From positions 10,314-74,313 of the forward strand of contig JALERH010000030.1 in NCBI GenBank assembly GCA_022764275.1: a stretch of DNA of 64,000 nucleotides, in the 5' to 3' direction. The notes under the pieces are model-generated. The model did no database searches. It was not told the origin of the DNA and worked only from the letters and a program-made list of their open reading frames with translations. Of this stretch, positions 2,290 to 23,650 are shown one piece after another (the stretch's first letter is position 1; each line of letters opens with the position of its first letter). This DNA is from Blautia sp. GTDB lineage: Bacteria; Bacillota; Clostridia; Lachnospirales; Lachnospiraceae. Position numbers and translations under genes: made by a program.

Positions 2290-2304
2290 CTGTTCCTCCT
2301 GCAA

Positions 2305-5985: not shown

Positions 5986-6122
5986 TGTTGTAATCCTCCT
6001 TAAGATTATATAGTTTTGTATATGTTAACCTTCCCCAAATTCCGCGGGCGGCACATATCATAATAATTGTATCCCCCGGCATTTACCGGTGCCGGGACCG
6101 TGCTTTTTTAAATTCTGTTATC

Positions 6123-7127: not shown

Positions 7128-7142
7128 CTCTCTTTCCTCCTC

Positions 7143-8636
7143 CTAATTTCTAAGGGTTGCCGCATGCATGATGTTTTCCTGGGTAGCCTCTGAGATATCG
7201 ATCTCTCCGGTCTTTTTACCCTCACACATAACCACGATACGGTCACTCATTCTTAAAATTTCTGTCATTTCAGAGGAAATCATGATGATTGACTTTCCTT
7301 CTGCTACCAATTCATTCATCAGATGATAAATCTCACTCTTGGCACCTACGTCGATACCTCTGGTCGGCTCGTCAAAAATCAGGATATCACAGTTTCTTAC
7401 AAGCCACTTGGCGATTACCACCTTCTGCTGATTACCTCCGGAAAGATTTACAACAAGCTGATCCACGTTCGGAGTCTTGGTCTTTAAGGATTCCACATAT
7501 TTCTGGGCTACCTCTGCCTCTTTCTTCTTATTAATGAAGATTCCGCTCATGAACTCGTCCAGATTAGCCATAGTGGAATTCTCTGCCACACTCTTTCCTA
7601 CTACGATTCCGAACCTCTTACGGTCTTCTGAAAGATATCCGATTCCACACTTTACTGCATCCATCGGGCTCTTGATATCTACTTTCTTGCCGTTTACATA
7701 GATATCTCCGCTCTCCTTCGGGTCTGCTCCGAACAGTGCTCTTGCGGTCTCGGTTCTTCCTGCTCCCATCAGTCCTGAGAATCCGAGGATTTCTCCTTTG
7801 TGAAGTTCAAAGCTTACATCCTGCACCATCTTACCAGCCTTTAAGTGGTCTACCTTTAATACCACCGGTGCATCTGGTGCTACGTTGCTCTCTGTCTTCG
7901 GATCTTCGTAAATGACACGTCCAACCATCATGTTGATAATGTCATCCTTGGTACATTCTTTTGTGATCAGGGTTCCTACATAGCCGCCGTCACGCATTAC
8001 GGTAACACGGTCTGTGATGACCTTGATCTCATCCATACGGTGTGATATGTACACGATTCCAAGCTGCTTGTCACGGAGGTCTCTGATAATCTTGAACAGT
8101 TCCTCAATTTCTGCCTCTGTCAGAGCTGCAGAAGGCTCATCGAAAATAATGACCTTTGCTTCGTGGGAAATTGCTTTTGCAATCTCGCACATCTGCTGTT
8201 TTCCGACGGTCAGATTTCCCATCTTTTCCTTGGGATCAATGTCAATATTCAACTGTCTGAACAGTTTCGCTGCTTCCTCATTCATCTTAGAATCGTTGAT
8301 GAGCTTTCCGTTCATCATCTCACGTCCGATGAAAATGTTCTGAGCCACGGTCAGGTGGTTCATCATGTTCAGCTCCTGATGCACGATTACGATACCTGCT
8401 TCCTGTGCTTCACGCGGACTGCTGAACTCCACTTCTTTTCCTTCATAAGTAATGGTTCCGGAATCTTTGGTATAAATACCAGTGAGAACCTTCATTAAAG
8501 TGGATTTACCGGCTCCGTTCTCACCCATCAAGGCAAGTACTTCACCTTTACGGATTTCCAAATCTACATGGTCAAGAGCGTGTACACCCGGAAAAGACTT
8601 ATCGATTCCTTTCATTGTTAAAATGATTTCACCCAT
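7143..8636 (-). CDS. Sugar ABC transporter ATP-binding protein (RbsA/MglA type), copy 2
   Basis: Two fused NBDs; GENGAGKS, IIFDEPS, LSGGNQQK, DEPTRGIDVGAK. Confidence 0.95.
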   Translation of the reverse strand: MGEIILTMKGIDKSFPGVHALDHVDLEIRKGEVLALMGENGAGKSTLMKVLTGIYTKDSGTITYEGKEVEFSSPREAQEAGIVIVHQELNMMNHLTVAQNIFIGREMMNGKLINDSKMNEEAAKLFRQLNIDIDPKEKMGNLTVGKQQMCEIAKAISHEAKVIIFDEPSAALTEAEIEELFKIIRDLRDKQLGIVYISHRMDEIKVITDRVTVMRDGGYVGTLITKECTKDDIINMMVGRVIYEDPKTESNVAPDAPVVLKVDHLKAGKMVQDVSFELHKGEILGFSGLMGAGRTETARALFGADPKESGDIYVNGKKVDIKSPMDAVKCGIGYLSEDRKRFGIVVGKSVAENSTMANLDEFMSGIFINKKKEAEVAQKYVESLKTKTPNVDQLVVNLSGGNQQKVVIAKWLVRNCDILIFDEPTRGIDVGAKSEIYHLMNELVAEGKSIIMISSEMTEILRMSDRIVVMCEGKKTGEIDISEATQENIMHAATLRN

Positions 8637-8677
8637 GTCTTCACCTATACGTCCTTTCTAACTATATAATGAACTGA

Positions 8678-9661
8678 TTAATTCTTTCTTCTTCTGCTTC
8701 GTACGTCTGCAAATACAGCAAGGAGTACGATGATACCGGTAATAACATACTGGTAATCCTTCTGGAATCCCATTGCCAGGATACCTTCCTGCAAAAGAGA
8801 GATGATGAAAACACCGATGATACTTCCGCCGATGGATGCGATACCACCGGACATGGAGGTTCCTCCCATTACACAGCTTGCGATTGCTTCGTTGTTGAAG
8901 GTATCACCAAGACCCGGCTGAACGGTTGTGTAACATCCAACATAAGCGATTGCAGCAATACCTGCCAGAGTTCCGCAGAAAACATATGCCAGGCACTCCC
9001 ATTTTTTTACATCAACACCGGAAAGACGTACAGCTTCTTTGTTGCTTCCGAGACAAAGGATATAACGTCCTGCTTTGGTATTGTTCAGAATCATTGCACA
9101 GATAACAGCGACTACAAGAAGTAAAATCAGGCCTGTAGGAATGTCTACACCGCCGACTTTCATTTTCACCAGGTTACGGAACCATCCTGTCGGCTCACTT
9201 CCCTGCGGCCAGCTGATGGACTGTGTCTGGGTAAATACAGAACCGATACCTTTTGCAAGCATCATGGAAGCCATGGAAGAAATAAAAGACGGAAGTCCCA
9301 TATAAGCAACCAGAATACCATTCCAGATACCGAAGAGCATGCCCACCAGGATACATACCAACAATGCTACGATTACCGGAACTCCGTCTTTTACCAGAAG
9401 ACGTCCGCCGATCAGAGCTGCACAGAACATAACCGGTCCGATGGAGAAGTCAATACCGCCGGTTGCGATTACGAATGTAACGCCCAGTGCTAAAAATCCA
9501 AGGAAGTATGCATAGTTTAATGCACTCATGATATTGGCATATCCAAGAATTCTTCCACTTGCGATGGAGAAGATGATATACATCAAGATCATTACTCCTA
9601 CTAATACAATTCGGTTAAATCCAACTTTCTTCACGAATGGACTGTTTTTAAAATTTTCCAT
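8678..9661 (-). CDS. Sugar ABC transporter permease (RbsC family), copy 1
   Basis: Multi-TM; TGGIDFSIG, GRYILCLGSNKEAVRLSGV, AIASCVMGGTSMSGG. Confidence 0.93.
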   Translation of the reverse strand: MENFKNSPFVKKVGFNRIVLVGVMILMYIIFSIASGRILGYANIMSALNYAYFLGFLALGVTFVIATGGIDFSIGPVMFCAALIGGRLLVKDGVPVIVALLVCILVGMLFGIWNGILVAYMGLPSFISSMASMMLAKGIGSVFTQTQSISWPQGSEPTGWFRNLVKMKVGGVDIPTGLILLLVVAVICAMILNNTKAGRYILCLGSNKEAVRLSGVDVKKWECLAYVFCGTLAGIAAIAYVGCYTTVQPGLGDTFNNEAIASCVMGGTSMSGGIASIGGSIIGVFIISLLQEGILAMGFQKDYQYVITGIIVLLAVFADVRSRRRKN

Positions 9662-9672
9662 TTCTGTTCCTC

Positions 9673-11166
9673 CTAATTTCTAAGGGTTGCCGCATGCATG
9701 ATGTTCTCCTGGGTAGCCTCTGCGATGTCAATCTCGCCGGTCTTTTTGCCCTCACACATAACTACGATACGGTCACTCATTCTTAAAATTTCTGTCATCT
9801 CAGAGGAAATCATGATGATTGACTTTCCTTCTGCCACCAATTCATTCATCAGATGATAAATCTCACTCTTGGCACCTACATCGATACCTCTGGTCGGCTC
9901 ATCGAAAATCAGGATATCGCAGTTTCTGATAAGCCACTTGGCGATTACCACCTTCTGCTGATTACCTCCGGAAAGGTTTACCACAAGCTGATCCACATTC
10001 GGAGTTTTAGTCTTTAAGGATTCCACATACTGCTGAGCTACTTTTGCCTCTTTCTTCTTATTAATGAAGATTCCGCTCATGAATTCATCCAGATTAGCCA
10101 TAGTGGAATTCTCTGCCACACTCTTTCCTACTACGATTCCGAATCTCTTACGGTCCTCGGAAAGATATCCGATTCCACATTTTACTGCATCCATCGGGCT
10201 CTTGATATCTACTTTCTTACCGTTTACATAGATATCTCCGCTCTCCTTCGGGTCTGCACCAAAGAGTGCTCTGGCAGTCTCAGTTCTTCCGGCTCCCATC
10301 AGTCCTGAGAATCCGAGAATTTCGCCTTTGTGAAGCTCAAAGCTTACATCCTGCACCATCTTACCTGCCTTTAAGTGGTCTACCTTTAACACCACCGGTG
10401 CATCCGGCGCTACGTTGCTCTCTGTCTTCGGGTCCTCATAGATGACACGTCCAACCATCATGTTAATGATATCATCTTTTGTGGAATCCTTTGTGATCAG
10501 GGTTCCCACATATCCGCCATCACGCATAACCGTTACACGGTCTGTGATAACTTTGATCTCATCCATACGGTGCGATATGTAAACGATTCCAAGCTGCTTG
10601 TCACGGAGGTCTCTGATAATCTTGAACAGTTCCTCAATCTCTGCCTCTGTCAGTGCAGCGGAAGGCTCATCAAAAATGATAACCTTTGCTTCATGAGAAA
10701 TTGCTTTTGCAATCTCACACATCTGCTGCTTACCAACGGTCAGATTTCCCATCTTTTCCTTGGGATTGATGTCGATGTTCAACTGTCTGAACAGCTTGGC
10801 TGCTTCCTCATTCATCTTTGCGTCATTGATGAGCTTACCGTTCATCATCTCACGCCCGATGAAAATATTCTGCGCCACAGTCAGGTGGTTCATCATGTTC
10901 AGCTCCTGATGCACGATTACGATACCTGCTTCCTGGGCAGCACGGGGGCTTGCAAATTCTACTTCTTTTCCCTCATAGGTAATCGTACCGGAATCCTTGG
11001 TATAGATACCTGTCAGAACTTTCATCAGTGTAGATTTGCCTGCACCGTTCTCTCCCATCAGCGCATGGACTTCACCTTTCCTGATTTCAAGGTTTACATG
11101 GTCAAGAGCATGTACACCCGGAAAGGATTTATCAATGCCTTTCATGGTTAAGATAACTTCTCCCAC
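9673..11166 (-). CDS. Sugar ABC transporter ATP-binding protein (RbsA/MglA type), copy 1
   Basis: Same motifs as 7143-8636; GTG start at 11166 gives the same 497-aa length. Confidence 0.95.
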   Translation of the reverse strand: MGEVILTMKGIDKSFPGVHALDHVNLEIRKGEVHALMGENGAGKSTLMKVLTGIYTKDSGTITYEGKEVEFASPRAAQEAGIVIVHQELNMMNHLTVAQNIFIGREMMNGKLINDAKMNEEAAKLFRQLNIDINPKEKMGNLTVGKQQMCEIAKAISHEAKVIIFDEPSAALTEAEIEELFKIIRDLRDKQLGIVYISHRMDEIKVITDRVTVMRDGGYVGTLITKDSTKDDIINMMVGRVIYEDPKTESNVAPDAPVVLKVDHLKAGKMVQDVSFELHKGEILGFSGLMGAGRTETARALFGADPKESGDIYVNGKKVDIKSPMDAVKCGIGYLSEDRKRFGIVVGKSVAENSTMANLDEFMSGIFINKKKEAKVAQQYVESLKTKTPNVDQLVVNLSGGNQQKVVIAKWLIRNCDILIFDEPTRGIDVGAKSEIYHLMNELVAEGKSIIMISSEMTEILRMSDRIVVMCEGKKTGEIDIAEATQENIMHAATLRN

Positions 11167-11249
11167 TCTTCTCCCTCCATTCTTTTTCAATCTCAACTGT
11201 CAATATTATATGTCTTATCTGCACAAATTTTAATGGAATATTTTCTAAA

Positions 11250-11319: not shown

Positions 11320-12324
11320 TTATTCTTCGCTGTCTTTTTGCTTTAAGTTATTAAAAGGAAACAGCAGTTTTTCAATTTCACTGTCATACATATTTTCAGG
11401 AGTCACCAGTTCGCATCCGGAATCCTGATTCTTTTTTACATTTTCGCCTTCCAGGAGATGAATGGTCTCTTCCACTCCCATATATCCCATTCGGAAAGCC
11501 TTCTGAACCACAAGCGCCTGAAAAATCCCCTGCTCCATCAGCTCCACGGCTTCCTGGGAGCTGTCCACTCCCACCACCCGGATTCTGTCCTGTGCCCTGG
11601 CATCCCGTACGGCTCTGGCAGCCCCTACAGAGGAATACTCATTCATCCCGGCAATCATTTCCAGATCCGGGTATTTTTCCATAAGCTCATTTGTCAGCTC
11701 ATATGCCTTGTCATAGAATGAATCGCAGTATACAACTTCTTCAATATTGTCTGCCAGTTCGCCAAGGCCTTCCCGAAATCCCGCCTCACGCTCCACAGCA
11801 GTGGAAACGCCTTTTACATGGCTTACAATGGCAATTCGGGAATCTTCATCCAGAAGTCTTTTCGCAAACTCTCCCAGCCGCCTGCCAACTTCCATGTTAT
11901 CCGTGGCCACCGTCAGATCCTGGATTTCTTCTTCTGTATAAGAGTCAATAAAAGTAATATGAGTTCCCTGTTCCTTTGCTTCCTTCAACAGTTCATCCGA
12001 TTCCGTAAAGCTGGAAGGAGAAAACAGAATCGCATCCGGCTTCTTTTTGATGGCAGCTCTGAGCAGTTCATTCTGCTGCTTCACATCCTGCTCCGCCTCA
12101 GGTCCTGTTACCAGAAAATCTGCCCCATATTCTTTTGCCGCCATTCTGGCTCCGGATATAAGGGAAGTCCAGAAATCGTTTGTTCCATCCTCGGTCTTCG
12201 GAATGTAGATCAGTGACAGGGGTCTGCTCTTCTTCTGCTGGTGCTGCGCATACCCGATCAGCAGCGTCCCGACTGACAAAAACAGGAATACTGCCACGGA
12301 AACCCATTTCTTATACTTATTCAT
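11320..12324 (-). CDS. Membrane-anchored sugar-binding sensor protein (accessory to the histidine kinase)
   Basis: N-terminal TM then RbsB-like fold (DFWTSLISGA, VATDNMEVG, VVGVDSS, LVVQKAFRMGY); overlaps the kinase stop. Confidence 0.85.
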   Translation of the reverse strand: MNKYKKWVSVAVFLFLSVGTLLIGYAQHQQKKSRPLSLIYIPKTEDGTNDFWTSLISGARMAAKEYGADFLVTGPEAEQDVKQQNELLRAAIKKKPDAILFSPSSFTESDELLKEAKEQGTHITFIDSYTEEEIQDLTVATDNMEVGRRLGEFAKRLLDEDSRIAIVSHVKGVSTAVEREAGFREGLGELADNIEEVVYCDSFYDKAYELTNELMEKYPDLEMIAGMNEYSSVGAARAVRDARAQDRIRVVGVDSSQEAVELMEQGIFQALVVQKAFRMGYMGVEETIHLLEGENVKKNQDSGCELVTPENMYDSEIEKLLFPFNNLKQKDSEE

Positions 12325-14116
12325 GGCTCACCTCCTGTTTCATAGGAATCGTAATGGCAGCAGCGGTTCCTCTGCCCGGTTCACTTTTATAGGCCATTCC
12401 ATAATCGTTTCCATAATAAAGCTTCAGACGTTTCTGTACATTGTAAACGCCCACACCATTGGAATGGTAATCTACCTTATGCCTTTCAAAAATATGGGAA
12501 AGGGTTGTCGAATCCATTCCCACACCGTTGTCAAGGATTTCGATCACTGCATTTCCATCCTTTTCATACCCGCGTACAATGAGCAGTCCTTTGCTCTCCT
12601 TATATTTCAGGCCATGATAGATTGCATTTTCTATAATCGGCTGGAGTACCAGTTTAATGATCTGAACACTCTGAATCTCCGGCTCCACTTCAATGCAAAA
12701 TTCCAGCTTGTCCTTATACCGCATCTTCTGAATGGTCAGATAGCTTCTCGCGTACTCGATCTCCTGCCCCACGGAAACCAGCTCATCTTCATTGCTGATA
12801 CTCTGCCGCAAAAGTCTTGCGAGAGATGCCGTCATAAGCACAACTTCCTCATTCTTTTTCCCCTCTGCCATCCAGATAATGGAATCCAGGGTATTATAGA
12901 GAAAATGAGGATTGATCTGAGACTGCAGTGCCTTCATCTCACTCTTTCTTTTTTCCTCCTGCTCATGAACATTCTGCTCCATCAGCTCCTGAATGCGGTA
13001 CGTCATGAGGTTGAAGGTTTTTGTCAGGCTTCCGATTTCGTTTTCAGTGGAAACCTCCACATCCGCCTGGGAAAAATCTCCTTCCTGCACCTTTGCCATG
13101 GAATCCCGCAGACGCTGGATCGGCATGGTAATATTTCTCGCGATCATGTTAGACAAAAGCAATGCCACACAAACCAGTGCAATGGCCATGATCACATAAA
13201 TACTCTGTGCTTTCCTGCTGCCCTTGGTAAGCTCTGCCATGTTCATACAGCCCACAACCGTCCATCCCGTTTTTTCAGATCGGGACAGTGTGTAAATTTT
13301 GGCACTGTTTCCGCTTCCCATGGTCACGGTATCTGTCTGCGCATTCATGACAAGCTCAATGTTTTCTGTCTGCAGTTCATTATACAGCTGCTGCTGCTGA
13401 GGATGGTAGACAATATTCCCCTCGCCGTCCACAATAAATACATATCCCTTGTTTCCAATGGAGTTCTGGTCACAAAGCTCACTGATGGCGCTGTAATTCA
13501 AGTCGATAAAAACGACTCCCTCCTTGCCGCCGCTTCCGGTAAAATTACGGATTCCCCGACTCAGGGTGATCACCCAGGGTCTTTCCCCTTTTATTGCATG
13601 CTGCACGTGAGAAGAGGTAAGAACGGATTTGCTGCTGTTTACGGCTTCCTCGTACCAGTTCTGCTCTGCCACATTCAGATACGGATTCACATACTGCAGC
13701 CCGCTGTTAAAAAGCCCCTTTCCATCATTGCGTATAATTCCGATATTTTTAATATCATCACGGCTTTTTAAAATCGTGGTGAACTGCTCGATCAGACGTT
13801 TCTTATGTCCCATCTCATCCCGTGCATCACCATCCTCCTGATAAAGATACGACTGAGCGTCCTCACTCCCTGAAATCATAGTGGCAATGTTATCCATATA
13901 TGTAATATAAGAATCGATACTCTGATTCATCTGCCGGATAATAGTCTGCGTGTACACCACAGCATTGTCATAAATAGAGGATCTCGTAAAACGAAGGGAT
14001 ACAAAGGTTACAATCAGCACAGCACACAGCACCAGCAAAGATACCGCAGCAAAAATAGCACTCCGAATACTTTTGAAACGCCTCAGCATAGTACCGGTTC
14101 TTTTTTCATATTTCAT
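12317..14116 (-). CDS. Sensor histidine kinase (YesM/LytS-like)
   Basis: Two TMs, Cache-like region, HAMP, LQSQINPHFLYNTL, LQPIIENAIYHG, DNGVG, GVGVYNV. Confidence 0.95.
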   Translation of the reverse strand: MKYEKRTGTMLRRFKSIRSAIFAAVSLLVLCAVLIVTFVSLRFTRSSIYDNAVVYTQTIIRQMNQSIDSYITYMDNIATMISGSEDAQSYLYQEDGDARDEMGHKKRLIEQFTTILKSRDDIKNIGIIRNDGKGLFNSGLQYVNPYLNVAEQNWYEEAVNSSKSVLTSSHVQHAIKGERPWVITLSRGIRNFTGSGGKEGVVFIDLNYSAISELCDQNSIGNKGYVFIVDGEGNIVYHPQQQQLYNELQTENIELVMNAQTDTVTMGSGNSAKIYTLSRSEKTGWTVVGCMNMAELTKGSRKAQSIYVIMAIALVCVALLLSNMIARNITMPIQRLRDSMAKVQEGDFSQADVEVSTENEIGSLTKTFNLMTYRIQELMEQNVHEQEEKRKSEMKALQSQINPHFLYNTLDSIIWMAEGKKNEEVVLMTASLARLLRQSISNEDELVSVGQEIEYARSYLTIQKMRYKDKLEFCIEVEPEIQSVQIIKLVLQPIIENAIYHGLKYKESKGLLIVRGYEKDGNAVIEILDNGVGMDSTTLSHIFERHKVDYHSNGVGVYNVQKRLKLYYGNDYGMAYKSEPGRGTAAAITIPMKQEVSHE

Positions 14117-15732
14117 TTACGCTTCTCCCTGGCATATTCAGTAGGTGTCTTTCCTGTCATTTTCTTAAAGGAAATGCCGAAATAATGCGGGTCCGAAAAG
14201 CCCACTTTTTCCGCAATCTCATAATTTTTCAGAGTCGTATTTCCCAGGAGCTCTTTTGCCTTTTCCATCCTTGTACGGACAAGGGCCTCGATAAAGGTTT
14301 CCCCCGTCACCTCCTTGAAAATCGTGCTGAAATAACTGGTGCTGATATTTAAATAAGAACAGATACTGTTCAGGCTCACGTCCGGATTCATATAATTTTT
14401 CTGAATATAATCAAGCGCCATCGCAGCCTGACGCTGCCCGCTGGAGCTGTTCAGCTGGGACAGCTCGTCAAAAACCTCCTGCACATATTCTTTTACCAGG
14501 CCAATGGCCAGCTGGAAAGTTTTCTGGTCCGTAACCTGGCGGATCAGTTCCTCTCTTTTCGCCACATCTCCCTCTTCGTCCTGAGAAACCGCATCCTGGC
14601 AGTTTCCTGCTGCACGGATGATCCGCTGAAGGCAGACACAGGCCTGACTTTTTTCTACCATGGCATCCTTAATGTCCTGCTCCATCCTGGCAATTGCGAG
14701 ATCCACGCCTTCCCGGTTTCCGGTTTTCAGCGCATTTGTCAGATTGTTCAAGGAACTCTGGAGGGAAATCCTGCAGTCCGTGTCTTTTTCTTCCATATCA
14801 ATAAGAAGATTCCCGCCCAGAAGGTAACGATATCCGATGGCCTTTTCCGCAAGATTATGGGAAAGCAGCAGATCCTGAGGCGTTTTCACCCAGCTTCCGA
14901 TACCGGCCGAAACCTCTATTCCAATTACGTCCCGGACTTCCTGCTGGATTTCCCTGCAGATCTTCCTGATTTTCCCGGAAAATTCTCTGGAATGATTTCC
15001 CATAAAAAGAATACACACACGATTATTTCCTTCCTGATACGCAATCCCCGCATTTTCTCTGGTCACGATCTCATCAGAAACATTAAAGAGAACGAATGCC
15101 ATGAGTGCACTTTCCTGCCGTTTTTCGACATCCACCTGATAAATATCAGAGTAAAGATCCATGTCAAAAACTGCAACACGATAGGAAGAGGCATCCAGAA
15201 TGATTCCCATATCTGCCAGCTCATTCAGGCTCTCCTGAACATCCCGTGTGCAGCTCACCAGGGCTTCGATTGCCTTGGAACGGATTACCTGGGCATTCTT
15301 GTGATAATCCTGCGAGGTTCTGGTAAGGTTTTCCAGCTTTTTCTTTTCCTTGCGGCGCTGATCCACCTTTTCTTTCATTTTCTCAATGACCCCTCTCAGT
15401 TCCATGGCAGTGATGGGTTTGAGCATATATTCGCTTACATTATACTGGATAGCTTTTTTGGCATATTCAAACTCTCCGAAACCGCTGAAGATGACAATTA
15501 CAATATCCGGATAATTGTCATGAAGAAAATGACTCAGCTCCATCCCATCCATATAAGGCATGCAAATATCGGTGAGCACAATATCTACCTGATGATTTTT
15601 CACGAATTCCGCTGCCTGCTGGCCATTTTCACAATCTCCTACCAGCTCACAGTCCATTCCCTTCCAGTCTATATTCTCCCTTATAGCGTCACGTACCAGG
15701 ATTTCATCGTCTACCAGTAAAATATGATACAT
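14113..15732 (-). CDS. Response regulator with AraC output domain (YesN-like)
   Basis: LLVDDE, LTDICMPYMDG, YMLKP, C-terminal AraC HTH (IAEKVGFSDPHYF...FKK). Confidence 0.95.
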   Translation of the reverse strand: MYHILLVDDEILVRDAIRENIDWKGMDCELVGDCENGQQAAEFVKNHQVDIVLTDICMPYMDGMELSHFLHDNYPDIVIVIFSGFGEFEYAKKAIQYNVSEYMLKPITAMELRGVIEKMKEKVDQRRKEKKKLENLTRTSQDYHKNAQVIRSKAIEALVSCTRDVQESLNELADMGIILDASSYRVAVFDMDLYSDIYQVDVEKRQESALMAFVLFNVSDEIVTRENAGIAYQEGNNRVCILFMGNHSREFSGKIRKICREIQQEVRDVIGIEVSAGIGSWVKTPQDLLLSHNLAEKAIGYRYLLGGNLLIDMEEKDTDCRISLQSSLNNLTNALKTGNREGVDLAIARMEQDIKDAMVEKSQACVCLQRIIRAAGNCQDAVSQDEEGDVAKREELIRQVTDQKTFQLAIGLVKEYVQEVFDELSQLNSSSGQRQAAMALDYIQKNYMNPDVSLNSICSYLNISTSYFSTIFKEVTGETFIEALVRTRMEKAKELLGNTTLKNYEIAEKVGFSDPHYFGISFKKMTGKTPTEYAREKRK

Positions 15733-15903
15733 AAACTGCAGTCTCCTCTTTTTTCAAACTTCTGTGCTCCTATTATACCCTATACCAAATAGAAGCACAA
15801 TCCAAATTCGCGGTTACTTTTTCAATAGGCAAATTCCATGTTGTATCTGAAAGCGGTGCGGTGCTATAATGAGGAAAAGTTGATTCGAAAGGGGAAATTT
15901 TTT

Positions 15904-16296: not shown

Positions 16297-16302
16297 AGGT
16301 CA

Positions 16303-16352
16303 AAAAGGCTGCTGCCTGATGATTTTTGAATCAACCGGGCACCAGCCTTTTT
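16303..16352. terminator. Terminator between convergent VOC and AKR genes
   Basis: AAAAGGCTG...CAGCCTTTTTT imperfect stem with A/T tracts on both sides. Confidence 0.55.
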
Positions 16353-16394
16353 CATTATTTAAATTTTTATGGAGATATCTTATTACATAAAACC

Positions 16395-17405
16395 CTATTT
16401 TACGATCACGCCATCTTCATCCCACAGGTCATGCCAGTCTTTTGCACCTTCCCACAGAAATACATGTCCTTTGATCAGACGATTGTTCTTATCCAGAGAT
16501 TTGATGGTTTCCATTTCCTCCTCTGTCAGCGGGTCCTCTGTAACACATTTCAGATTCATCGTGTAGTTTTTCTCCTTGAGCGAGAATGGGATAGGAGATT
16601 CTCCTCTCTGAACAGCCCATTTGATGCAGATAACAGCCGGATGTACTCCATGAGCCTCTGCGATTTTTTTCAGCTCCGGAAGCTCAATGTCTGCGATATC
16701 CTCCGGCATCTTGTCACGCTCCGGTCTCTCCGGGGAACCAATCGGGCAGAATCCCACAACTTCGATTCCATGAGCTCTGCAGTAGTCAAAAAGCTCAGGC
16801 TGCTGGAAGCAGGGATGCAGTTCCATCTCGATTGCTGCCGGTTTGATTCTGCAGAGGGGAAGCACAGCCTCCAGCTTCGGGATGGTCATATTGGACATTC
16901 CGATATGTTTCGTAAGGCCCATGTCTACCAGTCTCTCCATCTGTCTCCAGGTCTTCATAAAACGCTCCACGGTAAACGGCTTGGAATCCGGATTTCTGGC
17001 ATCCACATCACAATGAGGTGCATGATAGTTTGGAAATGGCCAGTGTACATAATACATATCCAGATAATCAAGCTTTAAGTCTTTCAGTGTTTTTGCGCAG
17101 GCAAGCAGAACATCTCCGTCCCCGTGCATATCGTTCCATACCTTGGAAGCAATAAACAGTTCTTCTCTTTTTACAATGCCTTCTGCAAAAGCGTCCGCAA
17201 ATACCTTTCCGATCATATCCTCGTTGCCGTAGCAGGCAGCACAGTCAAATGAACGGTATCCCACACGAATCGCACCTGCCACGGATGCAGCTACCGCATC
17301 CGGGTCTGCATGGTCACTTCCAAAAGTTCCCATACCAACAGCCGGCATTTTCGCCCCTGTATAAAGGGTTCTCTGTGGAACTGTACTCGGATCAATAAAT
17401 GTCAT
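16395..17405 (-). CDS. Aldo/keto reductase (aldose-reductase-like)
   Basis: MPAVGMGT, catalytic tetrad in FDCAACYGNE, IASKVWN, YYVHWP; IGMSN, EMELHP. Confidence 0.92.
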   Translation of the reverse strand: MTFIDPSTVPQRTLYTGAKMPAVGMGTFGSDHADPDAVAASVAGAIRVGYRSFDCAACYGNEDMIGKVFADAFAEGIVKREELFIASKVWNDMHGDGDVLLACAKTLKDLKLDYLDMYYVHWPFPNYHAPHCDVDARNPDSKPFTVERFMKTWRQMERLVDMGLTKHIGMSNMTIPKLEAVLPLCRIKPAAIEMELHPCFQQPELFDYCRAHGIEVVGFCPIGSPERPERDKMPEDIADIELPELKKIAEAHGVHPAVICIKWAVQRGESPIPFSLKEKNYTMNLKCVTEDPLTEEEMETIKSLDKNNRLIKGHVFLWEGAKDWHDLWDEDGVIVK

Positions 17406-17431
17406 AACAAAGCCCTCCTTTTACATTCCTG

Positions 17432-18364
17432 TTATCTTATCTTTTTTATATTTATTTTTGGAAGAAGCTCTTCCATATCTTCTTTCACAAAAAATCCGGT
17501 TTCCAGCCTCATGGCATTGGCAGCGGAAATAGCGCTGGCCAGCCGGATGGTCTCCTCCATGGAAAGCCCTCTGGACATTCCCACTGCAAAGCCTGCGATC
17601 ATGGAGTCTCCGCAGCCCACGGTATTCACCGCCTCAATTTTCGGCACCTTCACATCGTAAACACCCTCCTGGCAGGAGACAAGAGAACCTTCTCCTCCAA
17701 GGGAGATCACTACGATCTCAATACCATCATCGTGAAGATCTCTCGCCGCGCGCAGAAGTGCTTCCCGGCTGTTCATGGGCCTTCCTGTCAGGGCACGGAT
17801 TTCGTCAATGTTTGGTTTTATCATGGTCGGACGCTCCAACAGGCATTCTTCCAGAAGCTTTCCGCTGGTATCCAGAAGCACTGGTTTTTTTTCTTCTCTG
17901 GCTGCACGGATCATACTCTTATAAAGAGCAGCCCCGGCACCCTGAGGAGTACTGCCGGAAATGGTCACCACTCTGCATTCCGGCAAAATGGAGGTGAACT
18001 TTTTCAGAAGCCTGCTGCAGTCTTCCTCTGTCACCGAAAAACCCGGTTCCAGAAACTCTGTCTGCTGATGATTTACCTCATCCCAGATGTTGATACATGT
18101 ACGGCTTTCCCCTTCGCACCATACGAATTCACTTCGGATGCCTCTGGCCTCTACACGTTCCGAAATAAACTTTCCGGAATGTCCGCCCAGAAAACCAGTG
18201 GCTGTCATTTTTTCCCCGGCAATGGATGCCACACGCGCCACATTGATCCCCTTTCCGCCGGCGTTAGCCGCACAGGATTTTACACGGTTTACATTGCCAA
18301 CGCCAAACCGCTCCACCACATATCGCTTGTCAATAGCGGCATTGGCAGTTACTGTTAAGATCAT
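17432..18364 (-). CDS. PfkB-family hexose-phosphate kinase (1-phosphofructokinase/tagatose-6-phosphate kinase type)
   Basis: MILTVTANAAID, AGGKGINVARV, IKPNIDE, ISLGGEG, NTVGCGDSMIAG. Confidence 0.9.
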   Translation of the reverse strand: MILTVTANAAIDKRYVVERFGVGNVNRVKSCAANAGGKGINVARVASIAGEKMTATGFLGGHSGKFISERVEARGIRSEFVWCEGESRTCINIWDEVNHQQTEFLEPGFSVTEEDCSRLLKKFTSILPECRVVTISGSTPQGAGAALYKSMIRAAREEKKPVLLDTSGKLLEECLLERPTMIKPNIDEIRALTGRPMNSREALLRAARDLHDDGIEIVVISLGGEGSLVSCQEGVYDVKVPKIEAVNTVGCGDSMIAGFAVGMSRGLSMEETIRLASAISAANAMRLETGFFVKEDMEELLPKINIKKIR

Positions 18365-18377
18365 ATTTCCTGCTCCC

Positions 18378-19427
18378 TTAGTCTTCATTCATCAGAAGAA
18401 TTTTTCCCTTTACAAGGCCAGGCGTCTTATAAAGCTGGAAAGCCTCCTGGGCCTGGCTCATAGGCATTTTTTTATAAATAAAGCCCGGATCGAATTTCAG
18501 CTGTCCCGTTGCAAAATAATGAGCAGTCAGATCCCACTCTTTTCCCGGGAAAGGAGAACTGTAGGACATCCAGGAGCCAGTCAGCTTAAATTCCTTACGG
18601 TTCATATTCTCCCACTGCTTTGGCGTAAAGTTAAGATCCACATGAGGAGTTCCGATAAAGCAGACGTGCGCCTTATTTGCTGCAAGCTCAAAAGCCATAT
18701 GCATGGTAGGAACCTGTCCGGCTGTCTCATAGACAAAACCGTATCCTTTTCCGCCGGTGATTGCCATCGCTTCTTCCATATAATTTTCCTTCGTGGTGTC
18801 AATTACCTCGTCTGCTCCAAGACGTTTTGCCAGTTCCAGACGTTCCTGACTGATATCGAATACCACAACCTTTTTGGAACCGAAAATTTTTGCCCACTGC
18901 ATGGTAAACATTCCGATGGTTCCACCGCCTAAAATTGCCACATACTGGCCGCCCTGGTAATCGTTCTGCAGAAGTCCGTGAAGGGCTACGGTAGACGGCT
19001 CAAACATGGCACCCTGCTCATAGGAGATCGATGGATCAAAAGGAATGGCATTCTGCTCCGGGATCACCACGTAATCCGCATTGCTTCCCTGCTCTCTGGA
19101 GCCAATAAAGCTGTAATGCTTGCACAGAGAAAAGTTTCCGTTCTGACAGTCATCACATTTCATACATGGAAGAAGCGGTGCTCCTGAAACTCTCTGTCCT
19201 GCTTTCACCTTTGTGACGCCTTCTCCCACTTCCACTACATCGCCGGAAAATTCATGTCCCAGTACGATAGGATAAAAGTGAACGCCGTTATGTAATACAC
19301 GCGGAATATCGGAACCGCAGATACCGGAAGCTTTTACCTTAATTTTCACATAGCCCGGTTTCACCTGTGGTTCTTCCACTTCCTGGTAACGTACGTCCTC
19401 ATTTGCTACTACAACTGCTGCTTTCAT
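18378..19427 (-). CDS. Zn-dependent dehydrogenase, galactitol-1-phosphate 5-dehydrogenase-like
   Basis: GICGSD, LGHEFSG, CMKCDDC, ILGGGTIG, C-terminal GSWMSYSSPFPGKEW as in GatD-type enzymes. Confidence 0.8.
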   Translation of the reverse strand: MKAAVVVANEDVRYQEVEEPQVKPGYVKIKVKASGICGSDIPRVLHNGVHFYPIVLGHEFSGDVVEVGEGVTKVKAGQRVSGAPLLPCMKCDDCQNGNFSLCKHYSFIGSREQGSNADYVVIPEQNAIPFDPSISYEQGAMFEPSTVALHGLLQNDYQGGQYVAILGGGTIGMFTMQWAKIFGSKKVVVFDISQERLELAKRLGADEVIDTTKENYMEEAMAITGGKGYGFVYETAGQVPTMHMAFELAANKAHVCFIGTPHVDLNFTPKQWENMNRKEFKLTGSWMSYSSPFPGKEWDLTAHYFATGQLKFDPGFIYKKMPMSQAQEAFQLYKTPGLVKGKILLMNED

Positions 19428-19496
19428 AACTATTATTTCCTCCTTGGATCAGAAAGGGAAATCCTTTCTGAAATGATAAACCAATCTGTTTCCTGT

Positions 19497-21014
19497 TCAC
19501 TGCGGCTTTACCATCAGGTCTTTCAGATTTTCATAAAGCTTCCGATAGGTATCGTAGTTCCGGTCGTATATTTTCCGATTGTCAGGATTCGGCTCATGGC
19601 GTCTCGTTTCTTTCACCGTCAGAGACACTGCCTCCTCATAGCTTTCGTAAAATCCCACGCCTACGCCTGCCAGAATCGCCGCCCCCAGGGTAGTCGCCGT
19701 ATCAGAAGAAGGCACCACAACAGACTTCCCTGTTACATCAGCCTTGATCTGCGTCCACAAAAGGGAATTTGCTGAACCTCCCATAGCACGAAGGACCTCG
19801 ACTTCTGCACCGGCTTTTTCAGCTGTTTCCAGATTGTGGCGAAGAGCAAAGGCAACGCCTTCCATGCAGGCCCGAACCATATGCCCCTTCGTCTTTGCGA
19901 AATCCAGTCCGTAGAACACTCCCTTTGCGTATGGATTCCAGATTGGGGAACGCTCTCCTGACATATATGGTAAAAATACGACTCCGTCACTTCCGGGTGC
20001 AATTTTTTCTGCAATCTCGTTCAGCTGTGTCAGAGAAGACTTCCCGGAAGCTTCCTTCCGGGCTCTCTCATAGTCCGCAAATTCCCGTTCGAACCACCGC
20101 ATGACACCGCCGCCTCCGGTGGTACCTCCCTGCAGAAGCCACTGTCCCGGAACCACATGAAATCCCAGGATCAGCCTTGGATCCGCTTTATAGGAGTCCA
20201 TACAGATACTCATGCCTCCTGCCTGACCACCCTGCTCCTGTGTTTCTCCCGGATGGATCACCCCTGCTCCCAGAGTTCCGCAGGCTGCATCCAGACCTCC
20301 GGCCACAACCGGTGTTCCCACAGCAAGGCCGCACTGGGCAGACGCAGTTTCTGTCACCGTCCCCACCACCTTATCGCATGATACGATTTCCGGCAGGAAT
20401 TTGGCAGGAATCCCAAGCTTTTCGCACATTTCCTGATTCCAGGTACCATTTTTCATGTCAAAACAATGAAGCCCATAGCCCTGTGACAGATCCTGACTCA
20501 ATGCTCCTGTCAGCCGATAAGCGATATAGCTGTTGGACTGCAGGATTTTATCAATTTTCTCATACACCTCCGGCATATTTTCCTGATACCAGAGAATTTT
20601 GGCAGTGGTGTAGGATGGCTGAAGAGAATTTCCTGCCACCTGAAAAATTTTCTCTGCCCCCACTTTCTCATTCAGCCAGTCGCAGATTTCCTGTGCCCTG
20701 GTATCCATCCAGATAGGGGTGTTGGTCAGTACATTTCCTTCTTTGTCAACCGCAATCGCAGACCAGCTCTGTCCGTCAATTCCCACCCCGGCAATCTCTT
20801 CTGCCGGGATATCCCCCTGCTTCAGGCATTCCCGGGTGGCCTTGCATACAGCATCCCACCATTCTTCCGGGTTCTGTTCTGCCCATCCTTCCCGGGGATA
20901 GTAAACCGGATAATCCCCATTTGCGGAAGCTTTTACCTTTCCTTCCCGGTCAAACACCGCAACTTTACAGGCGCTGGTTCCAATATCAATTCCCAATAAA
21001 TATTTCTTTATCAT
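19497..21014 (-). CDS. FGGY-family carbohydrate kinase (xylulokinase-like)
   Basis: LGIDIGTS, WAEQNPEEWW, IWMDTRA, FLPYMSGERSP, RACMEGVA, MGGSA. Confidence 0.92.
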   Translation of the reverse strand: MIKKYLLGIDIGTSACKVAVFDREGKVKASANGDYPVYYPREGWAEQNPEEWWDAVCKATRECLKQGDIPAEEIAGVGIDGQSWSAIAVDKEGNVLTNTPIWMDTRAQEICDWLNEKVGAEKIFQVAGNSLQPSYTTAKILWYQENMPEVYEKIDKILQSNSYIAYRLTGALSQDLSQGYGLHCFDMKNGTWNQEMCEKLGIPAKFLPEIVSCDKVVGTVTETASAQCGLAVGTPVVAGGLDAACGTLGAGVIHPGETQEQGGQAGGMSICMDSYKADPRLILGFHVVPGQWLLQGGTTGGGGVMRWFEREFADYERARKEASGKSSLTQLNEIAEKIAPGSDGVVFLPYMSGERSPIWNPYAKGVFYGLDFAKTKGHMVRACMEGVAFALRHNLETAEKAGAEVEVLRAMGGSANSLLWTQIKADVTGKSVVVPSSDTATTLGAAILAGVGVGFYESYEEAVSLTVKETRRHEPNPDNRKIYDRNYDTYRKLYENLKDLMVKPQ

Positions 21015-21024
21015 CTTCTCCTCC

Positions 21025-22038
21025 TCAGATTCTTCCTATGGATTTTCCCATAAAAATCTCTGTCTGAAGCTTCTCTGTAATCCCTTCCGATGCTCCCTGC
21101 TCCTCTTTCGAATTTTCCAGGCGCTCCAAAATGATCCTTGCCACTTCCCTGGCAATTTTTTCCGTAGGCTGGGAAATGATCGTAAGCTTCGGGCTGCATG
21201 CACGGGCAAACTGCAGGTTGTCAAATCCAATCATGGAGAGATCTTCCCGCAAATGAATTCCCATTTCATTCACACCGATAACAGCACCCATCGTCATTTC
21301 ATAATTCGTCACAAATACAGCTGTCATATCCGGATTATTCTTTACCAGTGTCTCTATGGCACGTACACCGCCCTGTATGGTATAATCCCCATAATAAATC
21401 AGATTTTCCTCCACCGGAATTTCATGTTTTTCCAGGGCGCTGCGGTATCCCGACAGACGCTCCCTGGCTGTGGAGATATCTTTTGGTCCGGCAATGATTC
21501 CAATCTTTCTGTGTCCGTTTGCAAAAAACAATTCCATGGCATCTTCGGCTGCTTTTTCATTATCCACCAGCACACAGTCACAGGAGAGCCCTTTGATCCG
21601 TCGGTCGATCAGTACGATTGGCTTTCCGGTCTTTTTGAACGCTTCCAGGTGGCTTCCGCTGCCGTTCACCGGCATATTGATGATACCATCCACTCTTTTT
21701 CTGACGAGGAATTCGACTGCCTCTTTTTCCAGTCTTTTGTCTGTCCGGCAATCGCATACAATGGTCGCATAGCCGTGGTTTCGCAGAATATCTTCCATCC
21801 CGGTAATAATTTCCGTACAGAAAATATTGTTCAGCTCCGGTATGACGACTCCCACTGTCTTGGTGGCATTCGTCTTTAACCCACGGGCAACCTCATTCAC
21901 TTCATAATGCAGTTCCTGGATGGCTTCTTCAATTTTCGCCCTGTTCTTTTCCCGTACATTTCCCCCGTTGAAATAAGAGGAAATGGTGGCCAGACCAAGT
22001 CCTGTTCGCCTGGCAATGTCCTTCATCGTTGCCGCCAT
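21025..22038 (-). CDS. LacI-family transcriptional regulator
   Basis: TMKDIARRTGLGLATIS HTH, ARGLK hinge, periplasmic-binding-like effector domain. Confidence 0.95.
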   Translation of the reverse strand: MAATMKDIARRTGLGLATISSYFNGGNVREKNRAKIEEAIQELHYEVNEVARGLKTNATKTVGVVIPELNNIFCTEIITGMEDILRNHGYATIVCDCRTDKRLEKEAVEFLVRKRVDGIINMPVNGSGSHLEAFKKTGKPIVLIDRRIKGLSCDCVLVDNEKAAEDAMELFFANGHRKIGIIAGPKDISTARERLSGYRSALEKHEIPVEENLIYYGDYTIQGGVRAIETLVKNNPDMTAVFVTNYEMTMGAVIGVNEMGIHLREDLSMIGFDNLQFARACSPKLTIISQPTEKIAREVARIILERLENSKEEQGASEGITEKLQTEIFMGKSIGRI

Positions 22039-22055
22039 ACCATCACTCCCGGCTT

Positions 22056-22904
22056 TTATTCTGCTTTTCCATCGCAGCCGCATACCTTCATGCGTGCCAT
22101 TACCAGTTCTTTTACTGCTGCAATTCCCGCTTTTCCATATACCTTCGGGTCAAATACTTTCTCATCTTCCAGAGTCTCTCTCACGGCCTTGCTGTATGCT
22201 GCTCTAAGCTCTGTGGCAAAATTCACTTTGCAGATACCGCGTCTTACGCAGTCCATAACATCCTCATCGGTCAGACCGGAAGCGCCGTGGAGAACAAGAG
22301 GAATGTCCACTACTTCACGGATCTCGCTAAGGCGTTCCTTATCCAGAACCGGTGTACCAACATAGAAGCCATGCGCTGTTCCGATTGCCACTGCAAGAGA
22401 AGTAACACCTGTACGCTCCACAAACTCTTTTGCCTGCTGCGGATCTGTATTGGTATCTGCTACTGCTTCCAGATCGTCTTCTTTGCCGCCTACCTTACCA
22501 AGCTCTGCCTCGCAGGGAATTCCCATAGATGCCGCCACATCTGCTACTTTTTTGCTCACTTCAACATTTCCTTCAAAGTCAAGCTTGGAGCCATCTATCA
22601 TAACAGAAGTATAACCTGCTTTTAATGCTTTCATAGCCAGGTCAAAGCTGCTGCCGTGATCCAGATGCAGGCATACTGGAACGGATGCCTGTGCTGCTTC
22701 TGCTGCGACAATCGCACAATATGTGTCAAGCGTTCCATATTTGATGGTGGACGGAGTCGTCTGAATCATCACAGGGGCTTTCAGCTCCTCAGCAGCCTGA
22801 ATAATGGCTTTCACCATTTCCATATTCTCTGCATTAAATGCACCTACTGCATAACCGCCCTTCTGGGCTTTTAATAACATTTCTTCTGATGTAACAAGTG
22901 GCAT
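22056..22904 (-). CDS. Class II fructose/tagatose-1,6-bisphosphate aldolase
   Basis: YAVGAFN, LHLDHG, SVMIDGS, EAELG, LAVAIGTAHG, LVLHGASG, KVNFATE; RBS AAGGAGG. Confidence 0.92.
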   Translation of the reverse strand: MPLVTSEEMLLKAQKGGYAVGAFNAENMEMVKAIIQAAEELKAPVMIQTTPSTIKYGTLDTYCAIVAAEAAQASVPVCLHLDHGSSFDLAMKALKAGYTSVMIDGSKLDFEGNVEVSKKVADVAASMGIPCEAELGKVGGKEDDLEAVADTNTDPQQAKEFVERTGVTSLAVAIGTAHGFYVGTPVLDKERLSEIREVVDIPLVLHGASGLTDEDVMDCVRRGICKVNFATELRAAYSKAVRETLEDEKVFDPKVYGKAGIAAVKELVMARMKVCGCDGKAE

Positions 22905-22935
22905 CTCATTTGTCCTCCTTAATTTTTTGGAAACC

Positions 22936-22985
22936 GAAACGTTTCTGTTTTGTTTAATAATAACTCCTCTATCTTCATATGTCAA
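22936..22985 (-). promoter_or_regulatory. Sigma70 promoter with downstream LacI-type operator
   Basis: TTGACA(22985-22980)-17-TATTAT(22962-22957); palindrome GAAACGTTTC at 22936-22945 just after the predicted start site. Confidence 0.7.
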
Positions 22986-23103
22986 CCGTAAATTTTTCAT
23001 CTTTTCTCGGAAAATATTACCTTGAAAACAGCCTGAAACAAAGGTAAGTTATAAGATAGGATTGTATCAGATTCTACAAAAACAGAAGGGAGAAACAAAA
23101 ACT

Positions 23104-23547
23104 ATGTTAAAAGGAATTCCTGAAATATTATCACCAGAGTTACTGAAGGTTTTATGTGAAATGGGTCACAGTGACCGTATCGTAATCGCAGACGGCAATT
23201 TCCCGGTTGAATCCATGGGTAAAAACTGCAAGGTCGTACGCTGCGACGGCCACGGAGTACCGGAGCTTCTGGATGCTATCCTTACCGTAATTCCGCTGGA
23301 TACTTATGTAGAGCATCCTGTTAACCTGATGGAAGTTATGCCAGGGGATAATGTAGCCACCCCAATCTGGGATACATACAAAGAAATCATCGCAAAGCAT
23401 GATGAAAGAGGTGCTTCCGCAGTTGGAAATATCGAACGTTTTGCTTTCTATGACGAAGCAAAGACCGCATACTGCATCATTGCCACCGGTGAAAAAGCAG
23501 TTTACGCAAATGTAATGCTGCAGAAAGGTGTAGTCATCAACAAATAA
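23104..23547 (+). CDS. fucU: L-fucose mutarotase (RbsD/FucU family)
   Basis: MLKGIP..LSPELLKVLCEMGHSDRIVIADGNFP...IERFAFY...IATGE...YAN. Confidence 0.88.
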   Translation: MLKGIPEILSPELLKVLCEMGHSDRIVIADGNFPVESMGKNCKVVRCDGHGVPELLDAILTVIPLDTYVEHPVNLMEVMPGDNVATPIWDTYKEIIAKHDERGASAVGNIERFAFYDEAKTAYCIIATGEKAVYANVMLQKGVVINK

Positions 23548-23606
23548 TTTATGGGATGATCAGAGCCTCCTGTTCTGATTTTTATACACACATATTCAAA
23601 GAGTTC

Positions 23607-23638
23607 AAAAAGAGCACCTCAAATGAGGTGCTCTTTTT
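23607..23638. terminator. Bidirectional terminator
   Basis: AAAAAGAGCACCTC-AAAT-GAGGTGCTCTTTTT between convergent genes. Confidence 0.85.
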
Positions 23639-23650
23639 GTATGATTTCAT

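Follow-up and report, generated by a model that had tools for sequence, protein, structure and literature searches.

A six-gene operon in Blautia

We analysed a 64,000-nucleotide stretch of a Blautia sp. genome (GenBank assembly GCA_022764275.1, contig JALERH010000030.1; hereafter the window), in which six minus-strand open reading frames (ORFs) lie head to tail from position 23000 down to 16395. Pfam and NCBIfam identify their products as a ketose-bisphosphate aldolase, a LacI-family repressor, an FGGY kinase, a GatD-like dehydrogenase, a PfkB kinase and an aldo-keto reductase (AKR), in agreement with the gene set named in a preliminary description made from the sequence alone. This operon may serve as an entry to the galactitol/tagatose-6-phosphate pathway that is independent of a phosphotransferase system (PTS). 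Its features are listed in the direction of transcription.

22957..22985, minus strand: promoter, TTGACA-17 nt-TATTAT, matching 11 of 12 consensus positions
22931..22950, minus strand: predicted LacI operator, the 20-bp palindrome AAACAGAAACGTTTCGGTTT, starting 7 nt past the -10 box
22056..22904, minus strand: class II ketose-bisphosphate aldolase, GatY-like (PF01116, 339 bits)
21025..22083, minus strand: LacI-family repressor (LacI helix-turn-helix and Peripla_BP domains, Pfam)
19497..21014, minus strand: FGGY kinase, a XylB-like paralogue (PF00370, FGGY_N, positions 1-245 of 245; PF02782, FGGY_C)
18378..19427, minus strand: GatD-like Zn-dependent medium-chain dehydrogenase/reductase (MDR), 246 bits to Escherichia coli GatD (PDB 4A2C)
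17432..18388, minus strand: PfkB kinase of the 1-PFK/LacC 'hexose kinase' subfamily (TIGR03168, 333 bits, cut-off 216)
16395..17405, minus strand: AKR resembling aldose and aldehyde reductases (PF00248, 173 bits)
16302..16352, minus strand: intrinsic terminator ending the operon, a long hairpin and U-run (minimum free energy -30.1 kcal/mol over a 111-nt stretch, z = -3.5)

The preliminary description had also claimed that one promoter with a LacI operator drives all six genes and that PTS genes are missing, and both claims hold at the level of sequence. The TTGACA-17-TATTAT element is the sole near-consensus minus-strand promoter in a scan of positions 15600-23700, and it is followed by the palindrome, the six co-directional genes and the terminator. 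Intergenic gaps measure 0-69 nt and are accompanied by Shine-Dalgarno sequences. AAGGAGG stands ahead of both the dehydrogenase and the AKR genes; the latter starts 26 nt past the PfkB stop, with its Shine-Dalgarno sequence 8 nt upstream. None of the terminator-like matches within the operon is convincing: all are short and fall inside genes, and shuffled sequence gives at least as many. Together these features suggest that the six genes are co-transcribed. For the aldolase we prefer the ATG at 22904, nine bases past AAGGAGG, to the ORF start at 23000, because the longer ORF would cross its own promoter. The coordinates given for LacI are those of the longest ORF, and the true start may be a downstream ATG.

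Homologues of EIIA, EIIB, EIIC or PRD regulators are absent from the window, and the whole genome, represented by an assembly that is 92% complete, contains no match to EIIC-GAT (PF03611).

The lower half of the proposed pathway

The aldolase is probably a D-tagatose-1,6-bisphosphate aldolase. Among the NCBIfam models it is matched best by the GatY subfamily (369.5 bits, cut-off 383), the fructose-bisphosphate aldolase (FBA) equivalogs giving at most 330 bits, and the motifs HLDHG, GTAHG and LHGASG are all present. Three further class II aldolase paralogues are encoded in the genome.

We propose that the PfkB protein acts as a tagatose-6-phosphate kinase. It scores 307 bits against the FruK (1-phosphofructokinase) model (cut-off 292) and 249 bits against the LacC model (cut-off 469), scores from which specificity for tagatose-6-phosphate and for ketose-1-phosphates is indistinguishable. 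That it is the FruK of a fructose PTS can be set aside, as a better FruK is encoded on contig C161.

The window carries no GatZ. In some related operons, described below, PfkB is replaced by a GatZ/KbaZ-like protein that scores 525 bits on the agaZ_gatZ model. In E. coli, the housekeeping Pfk phosphorylates tagatose-6-phosphate and GatZ assists GatY (PMC9720028), and therefore a PfkB or a GatZ-like protein would each fit a D-tagatose-6-phosphate intermediate. This replacement and the GatY-like character of the aldolase support the tagatose-type end that had been suggested for the pathway.

An FGGY kinase probably distinct from xylulokinase

The FGGY protein nominally passes the XylB model (TIGR01312; 404 bits, cut-off 380). 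It is probably not the housekeeping xylulokinase, as a true XylB (592 bits) is encoded on contig C26. Among 151 Lachnospiraceae genomes, nearly one per genus, its orthologues form a group with at least 59% identity inside and at most 36% identity to other FGGY paralogues. The loop motif GQSWS occurs throughout this orthogroup, while the genome's true XylB has GQMHG.

FGGY kinases act mostly on ketoses, and xylitol and D-arabitol are minor substrates of E. coli XylB. In galactitol (D-numbering), C4-C6 appear to be configured like C3-C5 of D-xylulose. A XylB-derived active site would therefore be expected to make D-galactitol-6-phosphate, which is identical to L-galactitol-1-phosphate, the substrate of GatD. 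We propose that the FGGY protein is an ATP:galactitol (hexitol) kinase. A search of the literature returned no record of an ATP:galactitol phosphotransferase giving L-galactitol-1-phosphate.

Another candidate role, that of a missing L-fuculokinase, was rejected. The 92%-complete assembly encodes no FucK of the E. coli type, and it has a RhaB-type kinase on the window's contig; in two related loci (L047 and L099) a RhaB-type kinase immediately precedes FucI and FucU. The kinase of those loci is 79% identical to its orthologue at C116:2990-4390 on the window's contig and passes the rhamnulokinase model. Those Lachnospiraceae may use it as their fuculokinase or as a kinase with two functions.

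Conservation of the gene set and of the operator

FGGY orthologues with at least 59% identity are present in 28 of the 151 Lachnospiraceae genomes, one of them split and one truncated at a contig end. A split copy (L064, G143:C3:2712499-2713994) consists of two overlapping ORFs, with 73% and 65% identity; the rest of its operon is intact, and a frameshift may have made this gene a pseudogene. In a broader sample of 401 genomes across the phylum, searched at a threshold of E <= 1e-130, 17 had a match; 16 of these are besides the window's genome, fall in eight other families and show 42-60% identity. A pattern scan of species-representative genomes yielded 561 relatives, the best 80 of which belong to Blautia, Faecalicatena, Dorea, Lacrimispora, Hungatella, Mediterraneibacter and others. 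About 20 kb were taken around 127 loci and their ORFs were clustered. The counts of gene content below refer to the 77 loci that have at least 6.5 kb on either side of the kinase.

The FGGY and GatD-like genes are neighbours in almost all loci, and the kinase is not linked to xylose genes. A GatD-like gene is found in 75 of the 77 loci and an aldolase in 73. PfkB (62 loci) and the GatZ/KbaZ-like protein (eight loci) never occur together, an exclusion with a Fisher p of 3e-7 among loci that are related to one another. AKR is encoded in 61 loci and the mutarotase FucU in 30, with AKR accompanying FucU in 29 of them. Gene orders vary between lineages. Several further families of Bacillota have this set of genes as well (FGGY identity 49-60%), in the order LacI-FGGY-GatD-(aldolase-PfkB or GatZ)-AKR-FucU on one strand.

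The operator is conserved with its presumed regulator. Its consensus, AAACCGAAACGTTTCGGTTT, lies 5' of the aldolase gene in 53 of 56 LacI-bearing loci and in none of the 32 loci without LacI, which instead carry AraC- or DeoR-type regulator genes. A genome-wide regulon search revealed no second copy beyond the operon. The restriction of the palindrome to LacI-bearing loci and the lack of another copy in the genome suggest that the operator is real and the regulator local. Although the LacI protein reaches no NCBIfam equivalog cut-off, its N-terminal helix-turn-helix, its effector domain of the periplasmic-binding-protein type and the palindrome at the promoter are what would be expected of a LacI-type repressor.

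Dehydrogenase relatives in PTS operons

The proposed function of the GatD-like enzyme is that of a galactitol-1-phosphate 5-dehydrogenase. Its overall identity to the E. coli enzyme is 37%, and of the 89 family-invariant columns the two have 71 in common, including both Zn sites. The runner-up structure, a xylitol dehydrogenase, is matched with 145 bits, and the score on the GatD model NF007642 is 311 bits (cut-off 550). There is no second GatD-like gene in the genome.

The most informative relatives are dehydrogenases, 61-68% identical to the Blautia protein, that are encoded in Gat-type PTS operons of Lachnospiraceae (L170, L171, L172 and L174). These operons contain EIIA, EIIB, EIIC-GAT, a PRD regulator, PfkB and aldolase, and have no FGGY orthologue. 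The PTS partners of the dehydrogenase thus belong to the galactitol family, and the only substrate available to the enzyme in such operons would be a hexitol phosphate made by the PTS. In a maximum-likelihood tree the PTS-linked dehydrogenases nest within the FGGY-linked clade, for example in the groups formed by L172, L057 and L094 (support 100/97) and by L170, L123, L128 and L138 (99/91), while E. coli GatD lies outside on a long branch. In each of L123, L128 and L138, at about 4-15 kb of the locus, genes for a PRD regulator, EIIA, EIIB and two EIIC-GAT proteins are placed directly 5' of FGGY-GatD-PfkB-aldolase on the same strand, and the PfkB proteins are more divergent (41-44% identity).

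This nesting suggests that the dehydrogenase takes a hexitol phosphate in the FGGY-linked operons as well and that the kinase supplies what the PTS supplies elsewhere. An unusual arrangement in genome G112 points in the same direction. Here the genes are split, with AraC-FGGY-AKR-KdgT-type permease-FucU on one contig (L042) and DeoR-aldolase-GatD-PfkB on another (L175). The arrangement AraC-FGGY-AKR-KdgT-family permease-FucU is repeated in L112. There would be little reason for a kinase to accompany a reductase and a permease if its step came later than that of the dehydrogenase, so this split favours the kinase as the earlier of the two enzymes. The dehydrogenase, PfkB or GatZ, and aldolase would then form an ordinary downstream gat module, for which the FGGY kinase, with or without AKR, would do the job of the PTS. 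That the kinase replaces the PTS had been suggested at the outset, and this suggestion gains support from the FGGY-less PTS operons, from the adjacency of the FGGY and GatD-like genes and from the separation of the kinase orthogroup from other FGGY proteins.

The reductase, associated mutarotases and the presumed aldose

The best matches of the AKR protein in the PDB are eukaryotic aldehyde and aldose reductases (AKR1A, AKR1B, AKR4) and a mannose-6-phosphate reductase, at about 200-210 bits, and the tetrad D54, Y59, K88 and H121 is present in the translation. We propose that it is an NAD(P)H-dependent L-galactose (aldose) reductase. Divergent from the operon lies a mutarotase gene:

23062..23547, plus strand: FucU-type mutarotase (PF05025), its start probably near 23104

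This protein matches the L-fucose mutarotase model with 121 bits and the ribose pyranase model with 48 bits, and it may supply the reducible form of the aldose. In other Bacillota families FucU adjoins AKR and is co-directional with it. Two unrelated mutarotase families have been recruited at other loci. A RhaM-family gene (L-rhamnose mutarotase, PF05336, 104 aa) directly precedes the aldolase gene in L097, L098 and L105, itself preceded by ABC transporter genes in L098 and L105, and a gene of the aldose-1-epimerase family stands between PfkB and AKR in loci of the Lacrimispora type. FucU is the commonest of the three. The co-occurrence of AKR with FucU, and at times with the other two types, suggests that a free aldose stands at the start of the pathway. 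Along with the separate FGGY-AKR-permease-FucU module of G112, it supports the earlier suggestion that the AKR feeds the kinase by reducing an aldose.

Only D- or L-galactose reduces to galactitol. Given that FucU and RhaM are L-sugar mutarotases, that a Leloir GalK is present in the genome for D-galactose, and that L-galactose is the 6-hydroxy analogue of L-fucose, our best guess is L-galactose. The preliminary description had favoured this sugar, and the comparative data lend it some support, yet no part of the mechanism is less secure than the choice of aldose. L-Fucose itself was discarded as a substrate on chemical grounds, as its 6-deoxy intermediate would offer no site for phosphorylation by PfkB and would give no bisphosphate.

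A second FucU-like gene (contig C96) was considered as the 'real' fucose mutarotase and rejected from its neighbours, which were judged by eye. This FucU/RbsD-like gene, 50% identical, heads a cluster (C96:1231-8358) in which an ABC transporter is encoded along with proteins resembling methylthioribose kinase and an isomerase. In this context the FucU/RbsD-like protein may act as a mutarotase or pyranase in the salvage of 5-deoxy- or methylthio-ribose.

Genes surrounding the operon

The preliminary description had noted fucose genes next to the operon, and such genes are indeed found there. Three further features of the surrounding region are listed here.

25009-26805: FucI, in the adjoining region beyond FucU
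11320..15732, minus strand: three-component sugar sensor (AraC-type response regulator, histidine kinase, sensor resembling a solute-binding protein (SBP); Pfam/NCBIfam)
4906..11196, minus strand: CUT2 monosaccharide ABC transporter (two ATPases, two permeases, one SBP)

FucI is followed by a B12-dependent fucose/rhamnose microcompartment with a FucA-type aldolase. The three-component sensor has its own -10 box upstream and is a probable partner of the operon, since histidine-kinase sensors are encoded in 32 of the 61 AKR-bearing loci and in none of the 16 loci without AKR. The CUT2 system probably imports the aldose, and may do the same for L-fucose; in L047 and L099, homologous permease and SBP genes adjoin this operon together with FucI, FucU and the RhaB-like kinase. 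For the binding proteins of the transporter (4906-5985) and of the sensor (11320-12324), the PDB relatives (4KQC and 3BRS) have no informative names from which to read a ligand. A description of a Blautia species gives no usable phenotype.

Beyond the AKR gene, a glyoxalase/VOC-family ORF (15838-16296, plus strand; PF00903, 29 bits) converges on the operon and has the terminator hairpin in common with it, which is probably bidirectional. This terminator and the convergent gene indicate that the sensor and CUT2 genes downstream form a separate unit. A 131-aa minus-strand ORF past AKR (15814-16209) was dismissed as a mere shadow of the glyoxalase-family gene.

Several other arrangements were noted. 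In L129, L136, L139 and L144 the operon is DeoR-regulated and adjoins genes for a PFL-like glycyl-radical enzyme, its activase, a FucA-type aldolase and additional FGGY kinases. A glycyl-radical enzyme and an activase are also encoded at the left edge of the window (3-2304), and FGGY kinase genes lie immediately upstream of that edge on the contig. The interval between FucU and FucI repeatedly contains genes for surface proteins, both in the window (23651-24763, minus strand) and in other Blautia loci (for example, L074:4454-7147). They encode a GW-domain protein and a protein of about 900 aa with papain-like peptidase, lectin-like, Listeria-Bacteroides repeat and BspA-type leucine-rich repeat (LRR) domains.

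A proposed pathway and its alternatives

Taken together, these observations suggest the following mechanism. The neighbouring CUT2 system would import a free aldose, most likely L-galactose, although D-galactose would yield the same meso product. FucU would equilibrate the sugar and the AKR would reduce it to galactitol. The XylB-like FGGY kinase would then phosphorylate galactitol at its D-xylulose-like end to give L-galactitol-1-phosphate (D-galactitol-6-phosphate), which the GatD-like dehydrogenase would oxidize with NAD+ to D-tagatose-6-phosphate. PfkB would form D-tagatose-1,6-bisphosphate, and the GatY-like aldolase would split this into dihydroxyacetone phosphate (DHAP) and glyceraldehyde-3-phosphate. 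LacI, on the palindrome over the transcription start, would presumably be released by a pathway intermediate. Every substrate in this scheme, the order of kinase and dehydrogenase, the use of cofactors and the effector are predictions made from the identities of the genes, the architecture of the operon, the operator, and the patterns of conservation and modularity.

We consider it slightly better than an even chance that the operon is a PTS-independent entry to the galactitol/tagatose-6-phosphate pathway with this full mechanism. More tentatively, and with somewhat less than even confidence, it may represent an undescribed form of L-galactose catabolism in gut Lachnospiraceae and several other Bacillota families, in which carbon is switched from the L- to the D-series through meso-galactitol. 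In this form an NAD(P)H-dependent L-galactose reductase would be followed by a stereoselective FGGY galactitol kinase that delivers L-galactitol-1-phosphate to GatD, PfkB and the aldolase.

One alternative is that the MDR enzyme acts first, oxidizing galactitol that is imported or made by AKR to D-tagatose, which the FGGY kinase would convert to tagatose-6-phosphate for PfkB and the aldolase. This is the order of steps in Agrobacterium and Sinorhizobium. It would agree with the preference of most FGGY kinases for ketoses, with the score of this kinase on the XylB model, and with the tail of D-tagatose, whose stereochemistry also appears to match that of D-xylulose. PTS-independent routes through free tagatose are also known (PMC9720028). 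However, the dehydrogenase orthogroup has members in FGGY-less Gat-type PTS operons, where only a phosphorylated substrate would be available, GatD is the closest characterised relative by 100 bits, and in G112 the kinase accompanies AKR and a permease while the dehydrogenase is on another contig with PfkB and aldolase. For these reasons we regard an early dehydrogenase as unlikely.

A pentose route, fungal-like or starting from D-arabinose, would use the same enzymes in another way: the AKR would reduce D-arabinose, D-xylose or L-arabinose, and the FGGY kinase and MDR enzyme, in either order, would lead to xylulose-5-phosphate. An AKR, an MDR polyol dehydrogenase and a XylB-like kinase resemble the XR-XDH-XK trio, a xylitol dehydrogenase ranks second among the structures matched by the MDR enzyme, D-arabinose is another substrate of FucU, and two loci (L161 and L162) lack PfkB, GatZ and aldolase. 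Yet 70 of the 77 loci have PfkB or a GatZ-like protein and 73 have a GatY-like aldolase, for which such a route has no use. A canonical XylB is already present in the genome, and the dehydrogenase clade is common to Gat-type PTS operons with aldolase and PfkB, which leaves a pentose substrate quite unlikely.

We judge very unlikely a third scheme, similar to L-sorbose catabolism, in which FucI would isomerise L-galactose to L-tagatose, the FGGY kinase would phosphorylate this at C1, the AKR would reduce the resulting L-tagatose-1-phosphate to L-galactitol-1-phosphate, and GatD would form D-tagatose-6-phosphate. The parallel chemistry of sorbose-1-phosphate reductase and sorbitol-6-phosphate dehydrogenase is a precedent for it, and a mannose-6-phosphate reductase is among the PDB matches of the AKR. 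FucI and FucU are encoded next door, in L047 and L099 they even run in the same direction as the operon, and a passage of PMC3557285 cites Ju and Oh 2010 for the activity of FucI enzymes on L-galactose. Nevertheless, FucI occurs within about 9 kb in just eight of the 77 loci, and neither the loci outside the family nor the feeder module of G112 include it. L047 has FucI and no AKR, and it is the RhaB-like kinase, not this FGGY protein, that adjoins FucI in L047 and L099.

Several observations weigh against the kinase-first galactitol pathway that we prefer. In L123, L128 and L138 a single co-directional cluster encodes the FGGY kinase as well as a Gat-type PTS, a redundancy that the proposal leaves unexplained. 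L161 and L162 contain LacI-FGGY-GatD-AKR-FucU only, and this set of genes would fit equally well a conversion of D-arabinose through D-arabitol-1-phosphate to xylulose-5-phosphate. The equivalog cut-offs for GatD (311 versus 550), GatY (369.5 versus 383) and LacC (249 versus 469) are missed, while PfkB passes the 1-phosphofructokinase model (307 versus 292) and the FGGY protein the xylulokinase model (404 versus 380), such that the models alone would give the genes other names. The compared loci are phylogenetically related, and thus the Fisher p-values overstate their independence. As the genome's sole fucose-type mutarotase, the FucU of the window may serve fucose as well or instead. Finally, an aldose-1-epimerase-family gene is also found in a PTS-only locus, and another, of unknown role, in the tagatose cluster of E. 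coli Nissle (PMC9720028). We have therefore downgraded this gene family to weak evidence for a free aldose.

Comparison with known systems

From galactitol-1-phosphate onwards the proposed intermediates are those of the E. coli gat pathway, the GatD-like and GatY-like proteins are homologous to their E. coli counterparts, and some relatives encode a GatZ-like protein as well. The downstream half would thus be the known pathway, and the entry by way of a reductase and an FGGY kinase would be new. Unlike the E. coli system (GatABC PTS, GatD, PfkA/PfkB and GatYZ), the Blautia operon has no PTS and instead includes a soluble FGGY kinase and an aldose reductase acting upstream of it. It also has a dedicated PfkB in place of the housekeeping Pfk, and a LacI protein with its own operator rather than GatR.

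The tag cluster of E. coli Nissle and the TagD/TagE routes of Sinorhizobium and Agrobacterium are similar in their PTS-independent uptake through a CUT2 ABC system, and the Nissle route also converges on tagatose-6-phosphate and a GatY-like aldolase (PMC9720028). However, the Nissle and rhizobial routes apply a PfkB-type tagatose kinase to free D-tagatose and have no FGGY kinase, GatD-type dehydrogenase or AKR (PMC9720028). The rhizobial routes then differ further, in that tagatose-6-phosphate is epimerised to fructose-6-phosphate.

In the erythritol pathway of Brucella and Rhizobium, the FGGY polyol kinase EryA is followed by the polyol-phosphate dehydrogenase EryB. This is the nearest mechanistic precedent, wherein an FGGY kinase acts on a free polyol and the polyol phosphate is then oxidized, although the polyol has four carbons, the dehydrogenase is from an unrelated family, and there is neither an aldose-reductase feeder nor a bisphosphate aldolase. 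In the fungal oxidoreductive pathway for D-galactose, an aldose reductase makes galactitol and unphosphorylated dehydrogenase steps follow. The first step, reduction of galactose to galactitol by an AKR, would be the same in Blautia, but the fungal intermediates are unphosphorylated until fructose, whereas phosphorylation would come directly after reduction in our proposal. For L-galactose itself, Hobbs et al. reportedly described in 2014 a route in Bacteroides vulgatus with an L-galactose dehydrogenase, a lactonase and an L-galactonate dehydrogenase. That route would concern the same nutrient and habitat; it is oxidative, leading through L-galactonate to D-tagaturonate, and has no enzymes in common with the Blautia operon.

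The preliminary description knew of no account of such a pathway. Our search of the full-text literature likewise found no galactitol kinase, no route from galactitol to tagatose involving an FGGY kinase, and none from L-galactose through galactitol to tagatose-6-phosphate.

Implications

If the proposal is correct, the hexitol kinase would be a new specificity in the FGGY family, for a protein that annotation pipelines now label 'xylulokinase'. L-Galactose is a minor sugar of plant and algal glycans, and the operon would provide a second bacterial route for its use. Galactitol is a contested nutrient in colonisation resistance in the gut, and metabolic models of the microbiota would benefit from knowledge of the commensals that consume it and of the genes they use. 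The operon would also explain how abundant, PTS-poor gut Clostridia could make use of galactitol and galactose-type sugars.

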